A stretch of DNA of 64,000 nt. Source: Ginglymostoma cirratum. Its lineage: Eukaryota. The DNA is taken from assembly GCA_024137785.1 (NCBI GenBank), contig JAHRHZ010000021.1:36407126-36471125 (forward strand), read 5' to 3'. The translations under genes were made by a program, and so were the position numbers. How positions within the stretch are numbered: position 1 is the stretch's first letter; every line of letters begins with the position of its first letter. The notes under the pieces are model-generated. The model was not told where the DNA came from and did not search any database. It saw nothing but the letters and a program-made list of their open reading frames with translations. Shown here one piece after another: positions 9,724 to 46,534 of the stretch.

Positions 9724-9932
9724 ATATATGGAATCTGAGATAACAAGCATGGGGCTAGATGAACACAGCAGGTCAAGCAGCATCATAGGAGCAGGAAAAC
9801 TTGACGTTTCGGGCCTAGACCCTTCATCCTATGATGCTGCTTGACCTGCTGTGTTCATCCAGCCCCATGCTTGTTATCTCGGATTCTCCAGCATCTGCAG
9901 TACCTTTTATCTCTGATATATATGGAATCTGA
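9724..9932 (+). mobile_element. Short palindromic Penelope-like insertion (family A) with TSD
   Basis: 54-bp inverted arms at 9737-9790 and 9827-9880 (1 mismatch), 3' tail 9881-9916, and a 15-bp direct repeat atatatggaatctga at 9724-9738 and 9918-9932. Confidence 0.85.
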
Positions 9933-13993: not shown

Positions 13994-14088
13994 TGAGGAG
14001 GGGTTACTTAACCCGAAACGTTAACTTTGATTTCTTTCCACAGTTGCTGCCAGACCTGCTGATCTATTCTAGCAACTTCTATTTATGT
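13994..14088 (+). mobile_element. Penelope-like 3' fragment (family C) starting at a hammerhead core
   Basis: tgagga-g-gggtta-ct-taaccc-gaaacgtt-aact followed by gctgccagacctgctga...agcaacttct, homologous to 23910-24000. Confidence 0.75.
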
Positions 14089-16324
14089 GTCAAAGGATAT
14101 AGGGATCAGATAGGAAAGTAAAATTTGGCCTACATCTTGCCTACTCTTGTACCTATTTCTTATGTTTTCATTAATAGCAAATTTCTAGAGAATGAATAAG
14201 AACAGCTCTGGAATGAAATGAAGGCAGTAATCTAGGCATTCATTTTTGCTTGTGAAATCTAAACTTGACATGTTGGGCTGAAATTTTTTTTTTGGTTCTG
14301 TGTGAGTTGCAACAGGCATTTTGAAGAATTTTTCACCATGAAGTCTAGAGAGATTTCTTACTGTAACCTACTAAACTCACCTTATTAAGTACTTATTTCA
14401 CCCCTACGGCACCATCTAATTCTAGCGCCAACTTACCACATGCCATTCCCAAAGCAATTCTCAACTCAGCAGATATCTGCCAAATGACTGGCATACCTTG
14501 TGCCAACACCATCTTTAAAAGGTCACTGTGCAGCCAGACCAGCCTTGACATTCCAGTGTTACCTCTCAACAGCAATGTAATGGCATAATAGTCAAAAACC
14601 AATGCTGACCACGCACATAGCGGCGTGGTTGACACTCCCTTGTGTATACAAACTCACCTTTTCACCTTAGTTGCTGTATAACTACCAGGCCGCAAACTTC
14701 ACCTGTCTTTAGCTGCATCCAATTTAAACAGCCTCTCTAAGTTACCATTACTCTGTTCTCAATGCCCACTGGACAGTTTGTCATTGTTCAGTAGAGAACA
14801 TCACAAACAGGCAAATAATTAAACAATTCTAGACAGAAGCTATTATATACAGTCACTAAAACTGAACTCAATCAAAATGAGTAAAGGCTGCAGTTTGCCC
14901 TCACAATGCAAACCAAATGCTAGCGTCATGTCCAAAGACAATTTTACACTCAATGATGGTCCACTGCACCCAGCTGTACTCTAATTGTAACAAGGTACCA
15001 ATCATATCCTGTCTGGCTTGTAGCCCCTGATGTAGATGAGCTCTATCATGCCCAAAGAGACCTTCATTCTCTTCAATATCTTGTCCTCTTCCTTGGAAGA
15101 CTGCTCCCATTCCAACAGTTCCTCAGTATCTATCACATTGCCTCATTGCCTGCTCCAATCGTGCAGAGCACATCATGCCGGAATGATGTGACGTACTTTG
15201 TTTAGCCTATACTAGAGTACCCCTCCAGCACCACTCCCAAACCAGTCCAAGCAGGGGCACAATACCTTAAGGAGCTCTATTGTTTAGTCCACCACGGTCC
15301 TGGTTGTAGCCTGTGAACCAACTCGGTGAAGGTGCCATACCAGCTGAGTGACCAACATATTACATTGAAAAAAGAAGTGCCTGTTGTGCTCCAATCCCCT
15401 TCCCACTGAGACCCACCTCAATCATTCAAACGATCATTGCATTCAGCAGGGTCCACTATCGTATTCTCCTAAGATATAATTCAGTGATGTTCCTCTCATC
15501 ACACAGCAACCATGTAAGTTTCACAATTGATGGAACACTTTTGGCCAGCATTCGCCTCCTTTTTAAGACATCATTGAGATGGCAATGTTAGATTTGCAGG
15601 TACCTATGTCATGGTGCAATTCAACTTTGTCCAACATTTGGAACCTAAGCATGCTCACTCCACTGTGTTACAAATAGGCAAAGCAATGTTTGCAAATGAA
15701 AGATAGCTATATTTTGCAGATATGTACTTCATGTATTTGCCTCTTCAGTGTAGATATGGATCTCGTGCTTTCATCCATCAAACTGATTCTGATTTCATCA
15801 TCCTTTGCTTTGTCCCAGCAATTTTCCAGTTGCAGGGAGCATCTATAGATCAGCAAGAGATATTAGGCATCACATCTCATAGTGGAGACCGTCAGCACCA
15901 TGTTCTGAGCTCCTCCTTCATCGTGAAATATCTCCCCTCCAACGTACACGTGTGCACATGCACACTCGCATGCGCATACACACATCCATATCCATGTCAC
16001 CTTCTACCTCACTCTACCCTGACATTCAATTTCTACTATCACATTCAACCCCATCACATTGAACTTTGCCTCTTCTGTCCTCCTTGCCCCTGAGACCCAT
16101 CATTACATTGTAATAATGCCCACTCCGTTCCTGTGCCCTATCCTGTGTGGATGCTGTGGTGGTGGTTACTGTTAATAAAATGTCTTTCCACAACCTGTCA
16201 TGCTTTCCACTTTTGTTCCATTTACCTCCCATTCACCTTGAGTTTCCCCTGTTTCCATCCTTGCCCCCACCTCTGCACATTCCTCTGCTTTACACCACCT
16301 GTTTTGACAATAACTCCCCCACTG

Positions 16325-17581: not shown

Positions 17582-17994
17582 ACACAAACACGGAGATTGC
17601 TGGAGAAACTCAGTTGATACTCGCAGCATCTGAGTAGTGAGAAACATTTTGAGTTCTTCTTCAGAACAAGGTCAAAAATCACATGATAACAAGCATGGGG
17701 CTGGATGAACACAGCAGGTCAAGCAGCATCATAGGAGCAGGAAAACTTGACGTTTCGGGCCTAAACGTTTCAGGTGTTCATGCTGTGTTCATCCAGCCCC
17801 ATGCTTGTTATCTCGGATTCTCCAGCATCTGCAGTACCTTTTATCTCTGATACAAAAATCACATGATACCAGGTTATAGTCCAACAGGTTTATGTGAAAA
17901 GCAACCTGTTGGACTATAACCTGCTGTCGTGTGATTTTTGACCTTGTCCACCCCAGTCCAACACCGGCACCTCCACATCACTTCTTCAGAACAA
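17582..17994. mobile_element. Three nested Penelope-like fragments (family C > family B > family A)
   Basis: Inner element with TSD caaaaatcacatgata (17673-17688 / 17853-17868). Middle element with TSD cttcttcagaacaa (17656-17669 / 17981-17994). Outer decayed family-C fragment on the - strand. Confidence 0.8.
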
Positions 17995-20779: not shown

Positions 20780-21485
20780 GCAATTGTAATTTAAAATGCG
20801 CAAGAGGTCAGAATTAGAGGAACATGGTTTGGAAGGTTTGTGGGGCTAGAGAAGATTACAGGGGTTATGAGAGATTTGAAAACAAGGATAATAATTTTAA
20901 ACTCAAGATGTTGTTTGACTGGGAGCCAATGTAAGATAATGAACACAGGAGCGATAGAGGATTGGGTTGGCTGGGAGATAAGAAATGGATAACAAAGTTT
21001 AGGATGACCTCAAGTTTATTGATTGTAGGAAGCTTGAATGAGATTTTCTGCAGTAAACGAATAAGCACAAGGGCAATTTTGAGTAATGCTGCAGAGTTGG
21101 AAGTAGATGGCACTGATCTGAGTTGGAAGCTCAATGTGGGATCAAGTTTAGCACCAAGTCTATGAACAGACTGGTTTAATACTTCAAGATAACAAGGTGT
21201 AGAGCTGGATGAACACAGCAGGCCAAGCAGCATCTGCAGTTCCTACTATCTCTGGTTTAATACTTCAACTGACAAAGGAGCAATGCTCCGAAAGCTTGTG
21301 ATTTCAAATAAACCTGTTGGACTATAACTTGGTGTTGTGTGACTTCAGACTAGTTTAATGTGGACTATTGCCAGGGAGAGAGATGTAATCATTAGCCAGG
21401 GGACAGAATTTAGGGACAAGGACCAGAAACAATAGTTTCAGTCTTGCCAATCATTCACTGGAGGATTTTTCCATTCATCTAGTTC
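20780..21485 (-). mobile_element. Old L2/CR1-like LINE fragment hosting two Penelope-like inserts
   Basis: Reverse-strand fragments resemble the L2 RT C-terminus. Similar sequence occurs at 63520-63930. Confidence 0.55.
21171..21359 (+). mobile_element. Two adjacent Penelope-like mini-insertions (collapsed family A-like, then family B)
   Basis: 17-bp direct repeat ctggtttaatacttcaa (21171-21187 / 21252-21268) flanks a 64-bp insert. It is followed by ctgacaa-a-ggagc-aat-gctcc-gaaagctt and aacctgttggactataac, and ends in cagactagtttaat (cf. cagactggtttaat at 21167). Confidence 0.8.
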
Positions 21486-22865: not shown

Positions 22866-24056
22866 GCACAAATACAACAACAAAAACAGAAGTTGCTGGA
22901 AAAGCTCAGCAGATCTGACAGCATCTGTGAAGAAAAAAAATCTGAGTTAACGTTTCCAGTCCGGTGACCCTTCCTTAGAACTGATGGTAGCTGGGAAAAT
23001 GTCAGTTTATATACAGAAAATAGAAAGAGTGATGGGATAGGGAGTAAACGATAGGATAGAGCCTAAAGAGAAAGAAGAACACAAAACAGAAATTGCTGAA
23101 AAGCTCAGCAGGTCTGGCAGCATCTGTGAGGGAAAAACAGAGTTAATGTTCCAGGTCCGGTGACCCTCCCTCAGAACTGATGGTGGCTGGGAAAAAGTCA
23201 GTTTATATGCAGAAAAAAGGGGGAGGGGGATAGAGTAAGGAGTAAATGATAGGATAGAGCCCAAAGAGAAAGAAAGACAGTTGGACAGACAAAGAGTTGA
23301 TAATGATCAGGCTGGGAGGGTGAATAGTTGTTAATGGGGACTATTGGTGACTAATAGCGGGTAGAGTGTAATGGCAGGCTATGTGGTAACAGGGCCTGGT
23401 GTGTGGGGTTGGGGGTGGGACATGGGAGAGTTTAGGCCCTAAAATTATTGAACCCAATATTGAGTCCAAAGGGCTGCAGGGTTAAAGTGCCACTTTAACG
23501 CAACACCCTGTTCCCTGACCAACATGTCTGTCTCTGGCTTGCTGCAGTGTTCCAGTGAAGCTCAACGCAAGCTAGAAGGACAACACCTCATTTTCTGCTC
23601 GGAGACCTTGCAGCCCTCTGGACTCAATATTGAGTTCAATAATTTTAGGGCCTAAACTCTCCCATGTCCCAGTCCCCAACCCCACACACCAGGCCCTGTT
23701 ACCATATAGCCTGCCATTACACACTACCTGCTATTAGCCACTAATAGTCCCTATTAACAACTATTCACCCTCCCAGCCTGATCATTATCAAGACCCTGTC
23801 CAACCTCTCTTCTCCCTCTTTAGGCTCTATCCTATCATTTACTCCTTACCCCATGCCCTTCCCCCTTTTTTCTGCATATAAACTGACATTTTCCCAGCCA
23901 CCATCAGTTCTGAGGAAGGGTCATCGAATCCGAAATGTTAACTCTGATATTTTTCTTCACGATGCTGCCAGACTTGCTGAGCTTTTCCAGCAACTTCTGT
24001 TTTTGTTACTGATTTACAACAACCACAGTTCTTTTGGTTTTTATCCAGCACAAATA
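22866..24056 (+). mobile_element. Penelope-like element 3' end with long inverted pseudo-LTRs (family C)
   Basis: Left arm ~22878-23480 (containing a ~195-bp tandem duplication) is the reverse complement of ~23605-24008. Spacer 23488-23655 translates CHFNATPCSLTNMSVSGLLQCSSEAQRKLEGQHLIFCSETLQPSGLNIEFNNFRA*, a Penelope GIY-YIG C-terminus. gcacaaata is repeated at 22866 and 24048. Confidence 0.9.
23905..23946 (+). ncRNA. Minimal type I hammerhead ribozyme motif
   Basis: Stem I agtt/aact, core CUGAGGA, stem II gggt-catcga-atcc, then GAAA-UGUU. Activity is untested. Confidence 0.65.
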
Positions 24057-26934: not shown

Positions 26935-27504
26935 CAGGTAAAGCTCTTTGATAACAAGCATGGGGCTGGATGAACACAGCAGGTCAAGCAGCATCATAGG
27001 AGCAGGAAAACTTGAGGGTTTAGGCCCNNNNNNNNNNNNNNNNNNNNNNNNNNNNNNNNNNNNNNNNNNNNNNNNNNNNNNNNNNNNNNNNNNNNNNNNN
27101 NNNNNNNNNNNNNNNNNNNNNNNNNNNNNNNNNNNNNNNNNNNNNNNNNNNNNNNNNNNNNNNNNNNNNNNNNNNNNNNNNNNNNNNNNNNNNNNNNNNN
27201 NNNNNNNNNNNNNNNNNNNNNNNNNNNNNNNNNNNNNNNNNNNNNNNNNNNNNNNNNNNNNNNNNNNNNNNNNNNNNNNNNNNNNNNNNNNNNNNNNNNN
27301 NNNNNNNNNNNNNNNNNNNNNNNNNNNNNNNNNNNNNNNNNNNNNNNNNNNNNNNNNNNNNNNNNNNNNNNNNNNNNNNNNNNNNNNNNNNNNNNNNNNN
27401 NNNNNNNNNNNNNNNNNNNNNNNNNNNTGTTCATCCAGCCCCATGCTTGTTATCTCGGATTCTCCAGCATCTGCAGTACCTTTTTATCTCAGGTAAAGCT
27501 CTTT
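26935..27504 (+). mobile_element. Palindromic Penelope-like insertion (family A) spanning an assembly gap
   Basis: Family A left and right arms lie on either side of the Ns. TSD caggtaaagctcttt at 26935-26949 / 27490-27504. Confidence 0.85.
27028..27427. other. Assembly gap (400 N)
   Basis: Run of N. Confidence 1.
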
Positions 27505-30732: not shown

Positions 30733-33110
30733 TATTAACAACCCAAATCAAGGATCTCATAGTCAATAAGATCCACCTCCTTCTAATAACACTGCATCAC
30801 CACCCCCACCCCCCACCTCTGAAGTCCACGAATGTAGGCCTGGTCTTTCTGAGATAGGTTTGCTGCGACGATTTCGCTCCAGGTCAGGTTCCTCCGCCAT
30901 GGGCAGCATGTACTTGACTGTAGCCCATCACTTGTGCCCGGAGTGTCTCAGGTGAATTTTCTCCGTTTCCTCCTCTTCTTCCAGCAATAACAGTATTGAG
31001 GCTGCATCCATCTCAGACTCTGAGATTTCCTTGACACTAGACAGAGGGGAAGAACCCATAGTTTCTGACAAGCCTTCTGGCTGTTCTGAGAGGCCGAGTA
31101 AGATTTGCTCCTGCCCCTTTTATGAGGTAGCAGTTTTCATGTGATTTACATGTTTGTTCAGGACTGCCACAGCTACCTGAACTTCGTAAGTCACGGGACC
31201 TGGTCTCATGTTGACCTCACCTCGTACCCATACAGGGCCATTTCCATTGTTCCAGCACCAAACTTCGTCCGCTGAAAATATTGTCTCTCTTGCTTAGAGG
31301 AAGCATGTGGCCAACATTGGCATTCTTTTCACCATTACCCTCCCCACCCCCCCAACCCTGGGTCCAGGAATGTCAGATTTAACCTGGTGCAGAGTCTTCT
31401 CACCATCAGCCACTCTGCTGGAGCTGTCCCTGTGGTTGCGCAAGGGGCAATCTTATAATTGAACAGGAACTGGGACTGTTTGGTATCAAGTGAAGCTGTA
31501 GGCTGTTTTTTTTTAAGCCTGCCTTCAACATTCAGACCGCTCTTTCTGTTAGACCATTGGATGATGGGTGGAATGGAGCTGTTTGAACATGCCAAGTGCT
31601 ATTGGACTTTAGGAAATACTCAAATTCCCTGCTGGTAAATGACATCCCATTGTCCATGATCAATACTTCCGGGAGTCTGTATTGCCATCGATGTTGGTAG
31701 CTTTTCAACCATCATCCCTGAATTTGCCAAATGAACCCGATGCACATGCACAATGATCAGGAACATTGAGCCCATGAAACGACTGGCATAGTTGACATAC
31801 AGCCAAGTCCAGGGTCTACCTGGCCATTCCCACGAATGTGGGGGCTTTACTGGCAGCAATTTTTTATCTTGTTGGCACTCTGGGCACTGCCCCACCATTG
31901 TAGCTATGTCACCATCCAACCCTGCCAACCAGACATAACTTCTCGTTAAGATTTTCATTTTGGAACCCCCTGGATGACTCTGATGGAGTTCTGGCAGTAT
32001 CTGGCAGCGACCTTTATGCAAGACATTGCTCTCACTCCTAATTGTAATATGGTATCCTCTACAGTGACCTGGTCTCACCGGGTCTAGAAAGGTTTCAATC
32101 CTGGTTGTTATGACTCTTCTGTTTCCCTGATTACCACCAGCTGTTTTTCGTAGGAGACCACAACCAAAGTTATACCCTTATTTTGTAACTGTTCCCCAGT
32201 GTATGTTCTCAGCCTGGCCGAAGTCTTGCACAAACTTAACAGCTGGAGTCCAGAGCTAAAGTTGTTAAAAACAGGTTCAGTGACCACAAATACAGACCAC
32301 CAGTATCAGCCTCCATGAGAACTTGGTGACCATTTAACAAGATGTTAATTTGAATTGGTTCTGATTTAGATGTTGCTAAGCAATTTAATTTTTCCAACCC
32401 ACATGTAGGTAGACTTTCCAGGATGTGCACTTTCCTGGATACCAGCCTATGAGTTTTCTTACTCAAATCAGGCCTTGTGGGACCCTTTTGCTGTCTCAAG
32501 TCCAAGTGCCAGCAGCAACTACAGTGGCTTGCCGACCAAGATCCTGAAGAACATTTTAACCACTTGACCAAGGCTCAGCTTTGTTGTGGGGTCACTCTGC
32601 TCAGGATATGCTCTGCGTGAGGCTCTACGATTGCCTATACTCATGTGGTGTTCCCTGATCTCAATCAGACAGCTAAGGGTGTTCACTTCTGTTGCGATGC
32701 CCTGTAGCTCCCTTGCTCCACATGCCACATTTTCCAATGACAGAGCCAATTGTCGTACTGGTTTGAAATCCAGGTGGGTGTTAGCTAGTAGGCAGTTTTA
32801 CATGGTTACGTCATTAATCCCTCCTACCAAACGGTCTCTCAGCTTCTCATTCAGGATTAACCCAAAATCATTTGCCTTTGCCAGTCATCTTAATCTTGCC
32901 ACAAATAACTGTACAGAGGCTGGTACCCCATCACCAAGTCACCCTTTGTTTGCATTTACACAGTACATTGGCTGTGGTCAGCCAGCTCGGAGTCAGTTAC
33001 TGAAGTGAGGAGATTCTGAATGCCTTGTTTATATCTGTCAGCCAGGGCTCCCTGATTGGCCCAAGTTAACAAGCCCAATCAAGGATCTCATAGCCAATAA
33101 GATCCACCAA
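30733..33110 (-). mobile_element. Internally deleted Gypsy LTR retrotransposon
   Basis: Direct repeat (aatcaaggatctcatag.caataagatccacc) at ~30745-30776 and ~33077-33108. Polypurine tract on - at ~30800-30816. Aspartic protease motif MEADTG (ORF 32236-32571). Integrase HHCC region LHQSHPG...MKILTRSYVW...CPECQ (ORF 31620-32078). No RT was seen. Confidence 0.88.
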
Positions 33111-38450: not shown

Positions 38451-39300
38451 TTGAAAACCTCATAATATTCAAACCACAACTATATCAACCAGACTTTACC
38501 CAGCAATTACCCACTTGCAGCTTGTAGGAAGAAGGAGTCTGGTATCATTTACTGACAGCCTGGAAGATGGTATCCAGGAATTCATCATTAAACCATTGTG
38601 TTGTCCTTTCACTGTATAAAGTTCTGTTCTTCAAGGCTCCCAGTGAATTAGTACACAGTGAATTAAGCACAATGGAGTAACAGGATCACTATCGGTCTGA
38701 TGCCTACAGCTGCCCTTTACTGCCTTCCTTTGCAGTGACTTCTACCTTCTCCTCTAGCAACTGTCTCAAGTAAAATATAACTGCCGTTGTTTATTTAAAT
38801 GTCTGACTGGCAATTGCTTCCATATATGAGTCCATCCCCATTGCTAAGGCCACTGTTGGTTTTTCTGATGTGAGAATTTCTACTAGCTGACTGTTACTAG
38901 GCTGGGTAATGCCTGATGGATGCAGAAAGACAGTACTGGGTTAAAATGAACATTATGCCCAATTCTGTTTCAACACTTATGACCTACTGGCTCCCTGTTA
39001 AGTTCTGCTTTTATGATTCCCTGACTTTGTGAATCACCCAATAGCAAATCTTTATTGCTATAAATTCCATCCAGGTGAGTACAACATGGAAAGGTGATGG
39101 CATTTTAGTGCTGCTCTTAATTATTATTATTATCATATATGGTGGAGAAAGAAGATGGCGCTTAGGCCAGTTATGATTTTTTAAATAAATCTTCAGTAAA
39201 GATTAAAATTTTACTAAGTTGTCAATTTCATGACATTCGTTAGCACATTTGCCTGCATTTATGAGGTTGTTGAGTTGCTCGCCAAGCTGGCTTGTTTTTG

Positions 39301-39342
39301 TTCAGACGTTTCCTCACCATACTAGGTGACATCATCAGTGAA
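39301..39342 (-). ncRNA. Minimal type I hammerhead ribozyme motif
   Basis: The - strand reads uuca-CUGAUGA-u-gucacc-uaguau-ggugag-GAAAC-GUC-ugaa, with a 4-bp stem I, full core, stem II and GUC triplet. Confidence 0.75.
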
Positions 39343-39368
39343 GCCTACGATGAAATTTCATTGGAGGC

Positions 39369-39410
39369 TCCACTGATGATGTCACCTAGCATAGTGATGA
39401 AATGTCTGAA
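39369..39410 (+). ncRNA. Minimal hammerhead motif, degenerate second copy
   Basis: ucca-CUGAUGA-u-gucacc-uagcau-agugau-GAAAU-GUC-ugaa. Confidence 0.6.
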
Positions 39411-40934
39411 CAAAAACAAGCCAGCTCGGTGAGCAACTCAACAACCCCATCCACATCCCAAGTTACAGATCTTTGCCTGCATTTACTTTGGATCAAACAG
39501 GGGAGAAATTGGACCATCTTGTATCCAGTTTCTGGGCAGAAAACAGGTGCAATGAGGCAGCCAATCTCCCATACTTGAATTGCAGAAGAAACACATTTGT
39601 CACCAAACTGGTTCTAGTGTTACAGAGCAAACCTTAACAACTTTTCAAAATAGTCATCATGCACCTTTACTGAACAACAGTTTTAAGGTGCAAGCAGAAA
39701 ATTGGTTTGGTTGACTTCTGCCACATCCAAGATTATCTGATTTGCATGTAACCTAACCAACAGCTATTGAAAGGATCACTTGACATTGGCATCAAAATTA
39801 TAAGTTTAGACAATGTTTAATCTGCTTAATGTGGAGCCAGCTCAATATTAACACCAGTCACCATTCATGCACCTTCCCTCCTGACTGTCCCTTCTCCTAC
39901 ACACCTAACTCACCTCACCTGGAACACGCTATCAAATCATCTCTGAATAGCAATTAGCACCCATGTTTACCAATACCATAGGAAAAAAGACTAGGGGACC
40001 AATTCACTGTGGCCCTGCCACTGGTCTCATGAGGCAAACTATTCTGAGATTGTCCAATTTCTAGACTGCGGTTTGACTCTTGAAATTCATTAAAATTTCA
40101 TATGCAATTGTATTGTGTTTAAATGTTAATTGAACAATTCGGAAAATAAAGGAGAAAAGAAAAGTTGCACCAGGGGTCTTTATATGCTTGTGAGTTGTCC
40201 CTTAACTTGGCTGTACTAAAAATGTAAGACAGCACCCATTAGTCCTGATACAGTGACGTATATTTTAAAATTTTATATTTTATATTTTCTCCTACATTCA
40301 TCAGTTTGTTCTGCAGCTATTTCTTTACAGCAGCCAAATATTAATGAGTTATTGGCCAAAGTTGGAATAAAAATGAAATTTTGATTTAAAGTTAAATACA
40401 AATTATGTTATTGGTAGCGCAATATTATTCAAATATCAGCTGTTTACTCATGTGCGAAATAATAGCATGATGCCAATTTGATTGATCTCAATGACTCACT
40501 GCAATAACTTCTGAACAATCACAGTACTAGGGAACTCACAAATTTGAGTCTCTGACAAGTTTGATATAGGCTTGGGGTCAATATAAATGAAAGGAATTTA
40601 TCAGTAATCTTGCTTTACGCAGCAGTTTAAATGCACTGTGTTTACATACTGACAGACAAATGACAATTTTCTATTTTTGTTCGCTCTTACAGTATGTATG
40701 CTCCAGATGGTCTGCCTCAGCAATGACTTTAAATGAAATTTGCACATCTTTTTTATTATAAGATTTTTTTGGGATTTTTTTATTATCCAGTTTGCTTCGT
40801 TCAATATCAGAGAGAGAAAGCGCAGATCTGTGGGTAAGCAGTAGTGTATTTTGGCCTTTTTTTTGTATGAGACAATTGTATATTGTTATAAAAATGCTGT
40901 GAACCCCCTTTAGCACGGAAGTATATTTTCTGCA

Positions 40935-44876: not shown

Positions 44877-45598
44877 CTACTGGAAAAAGAAATAAATAGG
44901 GAGAGAGGGGGAGGTGGATAGAGGATGGATAGAGGAGAGGATAGGTGGAGAGGAGGCAGACAAGTCGAAGAGGTGGGGATGGAGCCAGTAAAGGTGAGTG
45001 TAGGTAGGGGAGTAGGGAGGAGATAGGTCAGTCCAGGGAGGACGGACAGGTCAAGGGGGCGGGATGATGTTAGTAGATAGGAGATGGGGGTGTGGCTTGA
45101 GGTGAGAGGAAAAACAGGTCCTGCAATGCCACAGTGATGCCACCCGAAGGCTGCAGGAACAGCAAATCATATTCAGCCTGGGAACCCTGCAGCCCAATGG
45201 CACCAATGTGGATTTCACAAGCTTCAAAATCTCCCCTCCCCCAACCGCATCCCAGAACCAGCCCAGCTCATCCCCACCTCCCTAACCTGTTCTTCCTCTC
45301 ACCCCAAGCCACACCCCCATCTCCTATCTACTAACATCATCCCGCCCCCTTGACCTGTCCGTCCTCCCTGGACTGACCTATCTCCTCCCTACCCCCCTAC
45401 CTACACTCACCTTTACTGGCTCCATCCCCGCCTCTTCGACTTGTCTGCCTCCTCTCCACCTATCCTCTCCTCTATCCATCCTCTATCCGCCTCCCCCTCT
45501 CTCCCTATTTATTTGACCTGCTGTGTTCATCCAGCCCCATGCTTGTTATCTTGGATTCTCCAGCATCTGCAGTACCTTTTATCTACTGGAAAAAGAAA
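44877..45598 (+). mobile_element. Penelope-like 3' end with ~230-bp inverted arms (family A)
   Basis: Arms 44890-45119 / 45285-45514. The spacer translates LQCHSDATRRLQEQQIIFSLGTLQPNGTNVDFTSFKISPPP (GIY-YIG C-terminus). Family A tail present. 16-bp TSD ctactggaaaaagaaa (44877-44892 / 45583-45598). Confidence 0.9.
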
Positions 45599-46245: not shown

Positions 46246-46337
46246 CTGAAGAAGGGTCCAGACCCGAAGCGTCAGGTTTCCTGCTCCTCTGATGCTGACT
46301 GGCCTGCTGTGTTCATCCAGCTCCACACCTTGTTATC
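46246..46337 (+). mobile_element. Penelope-like 3' fragment starting at a hammerhead core
   Basis: ctgaaga-a-gggtc-ca-gaccc-gaagcgtc followed by a family A-like arm (gcctgctgtgttcatccagctccacaccttgttatc). Confidence 0.8.
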
Positions 46338-46534
46338 ATCTACTTATAATACGATTTCAAAGATTTTCAAACATACATTAGAAGTATAATCTCGTTAATC
46401 CCAAAACAGTCTTTTATACTTTGAAAAGAAACAAAATAGCCTTTGTATAGTACTCAGAACACATCCCTGGCTCAGAATCCAAAACAACACTCATACAATA
46501 CACCAGTCTTGGTATATGCCAATTGGAAAAGTTT

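Follow-up and report, generated by a model that had tools for sequence, protein, structure and literature searches.

A head-to-head pair of Penelope-like terminal repeats with a minimal hammerhead motif on each strand in Ginglymostoma cirratum

Penelope-like elements (PLEs) are retroelements with complex insertions, described here from the available sections of the papers cited. A 5'-truncated copy in inverted orientation may adjoin the 5' end of a copy, and one of the ends may carry a tail of 30-40 bp (PMC8557442); head-to-head palindromic PLE junctions with target duplications have been interpreted as products of self-priming (PMC3846280). Minimal hammerhead pairs also occur on opposite strands, 100-700 bp apart (PMC4209133). 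The enzyme of the Anolis carolinensis element PAc cuts and extends both strands, two internal reverse transcription (RT) start sites define the tail, and 5' shortening of the template leads to a shorter product (PMC11167929). Non-LTR retrozymes, defined by two or more tandem same-sense units that each carry a hammerhead, have been proposed to derive from PLE terminal repeats (both points in PMC7229834 and bioRxiv 10.64898/2026.07.22.740005, as far as their available sections go).

How does a fold-back with a hammerhead motif on each strand, found in 64 kb of Ginglymostoma cirratum DNA (the whole stretch analysed, hereafter the window), compare with these systems? It consists of two inverted arms of 95 nt each, 39261-39355 and 39356-39450, which are 89% complementary (10 mismatches in 95) and have zero spacer between them. 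Both strands fold as rods (z -19.6 and -21.1, with 0 of 200 shuffles as good), and each arm folded on its own is about as stable as its shuffles (z -1.3 to +1.2). The description of a spacerless fold-back in an earlier note on this DNA thus stands. An exact 14-bp direct repeat, 39248-39261 and 39472-39485, flanks the fold-back at the outer limits given in that note; other inverted copies of the family have flanking repeats of 12-16 bp, and the two copies are taken as a target-site duplication. The rod is a head-to-head pair of hammerhead-bearing PLE terminal repeats within a target duplication.

The repeat unit is numbered from window position 39356, the first base of the sense arm. The sense arm (39356-39450, plus strand), delimited by inverted-repeat detection and family matches, and the short inverted arm (39261-39355, minus strand) both represent unit 1-95. 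Only the sense arm continues into the PLE 'tail', unit 96-122, at 39451-39477 (plus strand, 27 nt); the inverted arm is tailless. The tail ends 9 nt short of the usual end at 131, and its last 6 nt (39472-39477) are identical to the first 6 nt of the right target duplication. This match suggests that microhomology may have primed this single event, which would differ from the homology-free initiation reported for PAc. At the head-to-head junction (39355/39356) each arm starts at unit 1-2, a family hotspot 30 nt 3' of the parental TATA box, which the insertion lacks. The earlier note saw no coding remnant, but 39356-39376 (plus strand) is a remnant of the parent's RT/GIY-YIG-like frame, namely its final six codons and stop, with the stop codon inside the hammerhead core. 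An ATG at 39379-39381 (plus strand), at the base of stem II, opens a frame that stops at codon 18 in this copy; by analogy with Anolis PAc (PMC11167929), it is likely to be the start codon of the downstream open reading frame in a tandem parent.

Assembled DNA contigs of organism A run from the left flank into the left arm in three of four runs and from the right arm or tail into the right flank in all four. The flanks there are about 3% diverged, and the centre of the fold-back is bridged by no contig from the four runs. Among sequencing runs recorded as RNA, none was listed with the locus; runs guessed to be RNA contain family-like contigs that are uninformative on starts or strand.

What was the parent element? 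With a locus arm as the query, the 4.36-Gb genome of the same species gave 2,909 first-look candidates, the best copies being 90-92% identical, and sequence upstream of the unit gave 45,511. Most other copies share sequence 5' of the unit; translated, it gives a GIY-YIG-like C-terminus with a stop codon in the hammerhead core. In L062, a long copy, a frame of 388 aa terminates within the unit and scores 30.6 bits with Pfam RVT_1 against a cutoff of 29.6; its 128 longer homologs mostly carry PF00078, and RVT_1 matches another copy, L061, at E=1.5e-4. Pfam GIY-YIG falls below cutoff on the parent frames (E 0.011-0.3), with the split motif visible in the translations, and just below cutoff (E=1.8e-4) on homolog P0004, which is 57% identical. 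By eye, the L062 translation has no CxxC zinc-finger linker between the RT and endonuclease domains, and absence of this linker is a criterion for the Penelope/Poseidon clade in the available sections of PMC8557442. The parent probably belongs to that clade, an assignment based on domain order and the linker as seen by eye rather than on a tree. Among the fetched loci there was neither a full-length copy nor a partial tandem bearing the repeat at each end, and none of 54 tailed arms shared sequence beyond the tail. The locus is almost certainly a decayed, very short inverted insertion of a PLE.

The usual insertion form of the family supports comparison with published Penelope/Poseidon insertions. 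Outward-pointing arm pairs are present in 38 of 68 fetched loci (one a duplicate), and in 35 of the 38 one arm ends near 94 and the other near 131; two are two-tailed and one is tailless. In a sample unbiased for 5' extent (a 33-mer has 401 exact matches, of which the first 100 were taken and 99 arms scored), 3' ends fall at 94-101 in 44 arms, like that of the short arm at the locus, and at 121-131 in 55. The distance between the arms of inverted loci ranges from 0 to 2,300 nt. Arms of one insertion differ less at shared polymorphic sites than arms of different insertions (0.18-0.22 vs 0.35-0.37, permutation p<=0.004). The locus and its family resemble the Penelope/Poseidon insertions, as available in PMC8557442 and PMC3846280, in a parent with an RT and a GIY-YIG-like C-terminus, a hammerhead in the terminal repeat, an inverted 5'-truncated copy, a tail on one arm, a target duplication and a junction palindrome. 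The locus differs in being an extreme short form without internal sequence, and in having its fold point at a hotspot rather than at a variable position.

The strict pattern CUGAUGA...GAAA-YGUC matches the window only twice, at 39373-39406 (plus strand) and 39305-39338 (minus strand), as the earlier note had it with one motif per strand; bare CTGATGA is not enriched (11 seen vs 15 expected). Rfam gives no hammerhead match in the window at gathering level, nor locally at E<=10, and locally returns just generic hairpin (microRNA) models far under their cutoffs. Both motifs are minimal type I hammerheads that retain every invariant core letter. As in the minimal hammerheads of PMC4209133 (available sections), the family motif has no loop III, a palindromic ACGU at 15.2-16.2, an extra nucleotide between A9 and G10.1 (here a U after A9), a 6-bp stem II and a short stem I, and opposite-strand pairs of this type are known in Schistosoma; the present motifs differ in that both locus copies have lost the G10.1-C11.1 pair and each is paired to its own complement. 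The minus copy has a 4-bp stem I, keeps the palindromic ACGU and, as claimed earlier, shows a single stem II mismatch; this falls, however, on the conserved pair (G10.1.G11.1, 39330/39313). Its predicted cut would follow 39305, and position 39307, where the earlier note had placed it, is the G of GUC. In the plus copy, with a predicted cut after 39406, G10.1-C11.1 has become G-U (39381/39398), a C.A occurs at the top of stem II and another in stem I, and AUGU replaces ACGU (15.2 is U instead of C). A highly conserved pair is therefore lost in both copies, and both arms fail the stem II check (a G10.1-C11.1 pair and a fully paired stem II). The unit also resembles PAc as described in the available sections of PMC11167929, with an ATG at the base of stem II, a cut about 26 nt downstream, and two 3' ends that lie about 71 and 108 nt downstream of the ATG and can be compared with the tail-defining RT start sites; the two were compared by description.

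Could the rod still be catalytic, as the earlier note proposed in calling it the window's best candidate for residual activity? Without a stem III loop, a 'full core' does not imply a ribozyme that works as a monomer. Single minimal motifs are reported as inactive and dimers as weakly active (PMC4209133), a dimer requirement attributed to Lunse et al. in the available part of PMC6765202, and for PAc cleavage was seen only with protein present (PMC11167929). At the locus there is one ribozyme copy per strand, and the strict pattern gives no second same-sense copy in the window. The core has an unpaired probability of at most 0.06 in the rod, and adopting the hammerhead shape would cost 54 (plus) and 60 (minus) kcal/mol. 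With damaged stems, a dimer-dependent type and a core buried in the rod, residual activity is unlikely, and folding predicts that the locus is very probably silent as a rod; the proposal finds no backing here. A read-through transcript would be a dsRNA hairpin and not a working ribozyme. At 6 of 61 positions each arm has a letter other than that of the family majority, a number equal to the family median, so the hammerhead damage represents ordinary decay. All four hammerhead checks are passed by 6 of 77 in-register family arms (from 90 long enough). At non-CpG positions the family core is changed in 21 of 770 cases vs 191 of 2,926 elsewhere (p=2e-5, uncorrected for base composition), and between own and sister families covariation is seen at stem pairs 15-54 and 28-41 (of 96 arms, 75 were in register; these are related sequences and not independent events). 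The motif looks maintained at the family level.

The earlier note raised the question of whether other copies share the fold point, and the answer is divided: at least 25 other loci do, at what is a hotspot, but most family fold points lie elsewhere and vary over more than 1 kb. The first part comes from a junction-spanning query, in which the count by eye was at least 25 other loci among 39 scored, vs 15 and 6 at two natural control junctions. Of the 17 loci fetched, 14 have the starts of both arms at 0-2; their junction letters differ and their flanks are unrelated. A whole-genome pattern for gaps of 14-44 gave 48 loci, from which the locus itself and nine that failed the family score (four of them sister-family by eye) were dropped. 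Of the remaining short fold-backs, 22 of 38 have a gap of 28-32 vs 16% expected (p=6e-9 against uniform), and the called start is exactly 0 or 1 for 31 of 76 arms, with 17 out-of-register sister-copy arms unplaceable. Two stricter gapped patterns found three and seven loci; in the latter, two of five family loci have a gap of 29-30. The second part comes from the 99 unbiased arms, whose starts spread from about -720 to +57. There the hotspot is modest, with three arms at position 1 and three each at -64 and -94, and near-symmetric junctions occur elsewhere too (10 of 54 pairs within 20 nt vs 4.5 expected). In a control region, -60 to -30 (11 loci, two dropped), gaps are scattered and 7 of 18 arms start at -32 to -29. 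This third, broader cluster at the upstream edge of the TATA box (L203-L213), to which several of the unbiased arms also belong, may reflect either an AT-rich site for the endonuclease or an anchor edge effect.

Why unit 0-1? Of 69 parent copies, 58 are in register; 45 of these have TATAAA at -30 to -25, and all 58 have a pyrimidine-purine step at -1/0. A TATA box 30 nt upstream has the textbook spacing for a polymerase II start. From these sequence features unit 0-1 is probably the transcription start, and the rod would then have been made by cDNA run-off there. The Penelope promoter of D. virilis, which lies in the pseudo-LTR, is reported as TATA-less in the available part of PMC2377424. At least three sister PLE families (L214-L261) have the same core and the same 0/1 fold hotspot, with compensatory changes in stems I and II.

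The explanation in which we have good confidence is a PLE insertion by double-sided priming, with likely run-off on an uncleaved transcript. The element's enzyme would cut the target and both cut ends would prime reverse transcription; as in Anolis PAc, from which these steps are taken, RT would start at two internal sites, unit about 94 and 131, and both target strands would be extended. Both cDNAs would then likely run off the 5' end of the uncleaved transcript. A template initiated at 0-1 would yield only 95- and 131-nt cDNAs, later joined, a step we propose here. Hammerheads on opposite strands would be a by-product of the inverted-arm geometry.

The same PLE origin might instead involve self-priming by fold-back, or joining through microhomology at a short palindrome, with the hotspots as favoured joining or pausing sites. 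Self-priming is how the available sections of PMC3846280 read junction palindromes, and joining could be favoured by the GC at 0/1, a palindrome of 2 nt (a 2-nt overlap is present there in 7 of 17 rods). The lengths of the two arms show a weak correlation (rho 0.30, p=0.03; not significant in a first set, rho 0.25, p=0.21, n=26), and arm starts in the sister families also cluster at two other short palindromes, position 54 with eight arms and position 50 with six, among the loci listed. Against this, arms start at 0-1 even when the partner starts elsewhere or the junction has inserts, and the own-family hotspot at 52, treated below, is spanned by neither a palindrome nor a direct repeat. We regard this route as unlikely, while giving it some weight. 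A purely random 5' truncation of two cDNAs, with the locus at the short end of a continuum, would account for the wide spread of unbiased arm starts and of inter-arm distances, but not for the excess of gaps of 28-32 or of arms at exactly 0 or 1, and is very unlikely. Finally, it is scarcely credible that the rod propagates itself, as a non-autonomous or viroid- or retrozyme-like RNA copied as a unit and cleaved in each polarity: the recurrence of a near-identical junction at other loci and the intact invariant core letters would fit, but among 14 rods the distance between arms (0.135) is not below that to the ordinary arms of 61 longer inverted loci (0.118), same-type and cross-type distances are equal (0.135 vs 0.135), 0 of 28 rod arms pass all four hammerhead checks, junction letters vary among rods, there is no tandem repeat, the TATA box is left out, and the single ribozyme per strand is of a type inactive as a monomer (PMC4209133, available sections).

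From these distances, rods appear as independent events and not as a lineage, and with that a viroid-like replicating unit fails as an identification. Non-LTR retrozymes and hammerhead viroids do resemble the locus in being short, non-coding and hammerhead-bearing with a rod-like fold, the likeness drawn in the earlier note. The retrozyme identity fails as well: the locus has no tandem same-sense hammerhead units, its ribozyme is minimal and not canonical, and its two polarities are mirror copies of one ribozyme. What had looked viroid- or retrozyme-like is DNA of a PLE terminal repeat, inserted with a target duplication.

Where do arms start if they do not start at 0-1? A pattern anchored 3' of the cut found 16 loci, all of the own family. 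Fourteen of their 32 arms (automatic call) start exactly at 52, the first base after GUC, and the runner-up position has four. At least one arm starts at 52 in 9 of the 16 loci (null 0.091, p=3e-6), and both do in five. Insertions that begin exactly there are fold-backs of about 120 bp and single arms (L188-L202 and L262, e.g. L191, L197 and L198; L136, L049 and L089); cut-site loci show the short-plus-tail asymmetry, and several have target duplications. Among the 99 unbiased arms, the automatic call gave no cut-site enrichment, with one start in 50-54. For the sister families, the family score was passed on both sides by 27 of the 50 loci listed from a total of 56; among the loci listed, 52 is again the mode (10 of 54 arms) and is used in 9 of 27 loci (null 0.069, p=5e-5). 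A sister-family peak at gap 26, predicted beforehand, was absent among the loci listed (2 of 27, mode 22). The replication of the pile-up in sister families is therefore partial.

The cut-site starts are likely to record in vivo cleavage by the parent ribozyme, as judged from where the copies end; a structural RT stop at the three-way junction, instead of cleavage, is a possible cause. According to PMC4209133, in vivo evidence for cleavage by the minimal PLE hammerhead is lacking. For PAc, the available sections of PMC11167929 report no RNA-seq reads beginning or ending at the cut, with uncleaved RNA as the main template, whereas genomic copies of the present family pile up there. No report of arm starts piling up at the cut was found in the literature covered, which consisted of openly accessible main texts. 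We lean towards a wider reading, in which the shortest fold-backs would be a fossil map of RNA 5' ends, the transcription start and the base after GUC; the minimal PLE hammerhead, weak in activity, would then cleave in the germ line and the cleaved RNA would template integration, which neither RNA-seq nor the PAc system in vitro has shown.

Other repeats in the window deserve mention. A second repeat family, at 22876-24007 and 13994-14090, has arms in direct and inverted orientation that contain hammerhead-like cores (22949-22978, minus; 23910-23939, plus; a degenerate third near 23145-23173, minus) and looks like another PLE. A 6-bp palindrome lies across its predicted cut, and the family was for this reason not used as a cut-site test. 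Two inverted 230-bp copies, 44890-45119 and 45285-45514, are 97.8% identical and separated by 165 bp; together they look like the interior of a 5'-inverted retroelement insertion. A palindromic repeat family has many copies in the window (9731-9918, 17677-17940, 21185-21345, 26949-27490, 45513-45584 and 46248-46339). The stop-free frame at 31620-32177 (minus strand), with an integrase zinc-binding domain (PF17921, E=1.5e-8), is probably an LTR-retrotransposon fragment. Elsewhere in the genome, the near-identical insertions L104/L105 and L207/L208, which lie on one contig at distances of about 85 kb and 235 kb, are probably local segmental duplications.

In itself the rod is a dead PLE fragment of an ordinary kind, with an inverted insertion form already published. 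PLE integration yields such ambisense hammerhead rods in DNA by the dozens, which calls for caution in scans that seek them. Whether minimal PLE hammerheads cut in vivo is the question that the cut-site pile-up addresses. This pile-up of cDNA ends constitutes a genome-only readout of hammerhead cleavage, one that can be repeated in any PLE-rich assembly.
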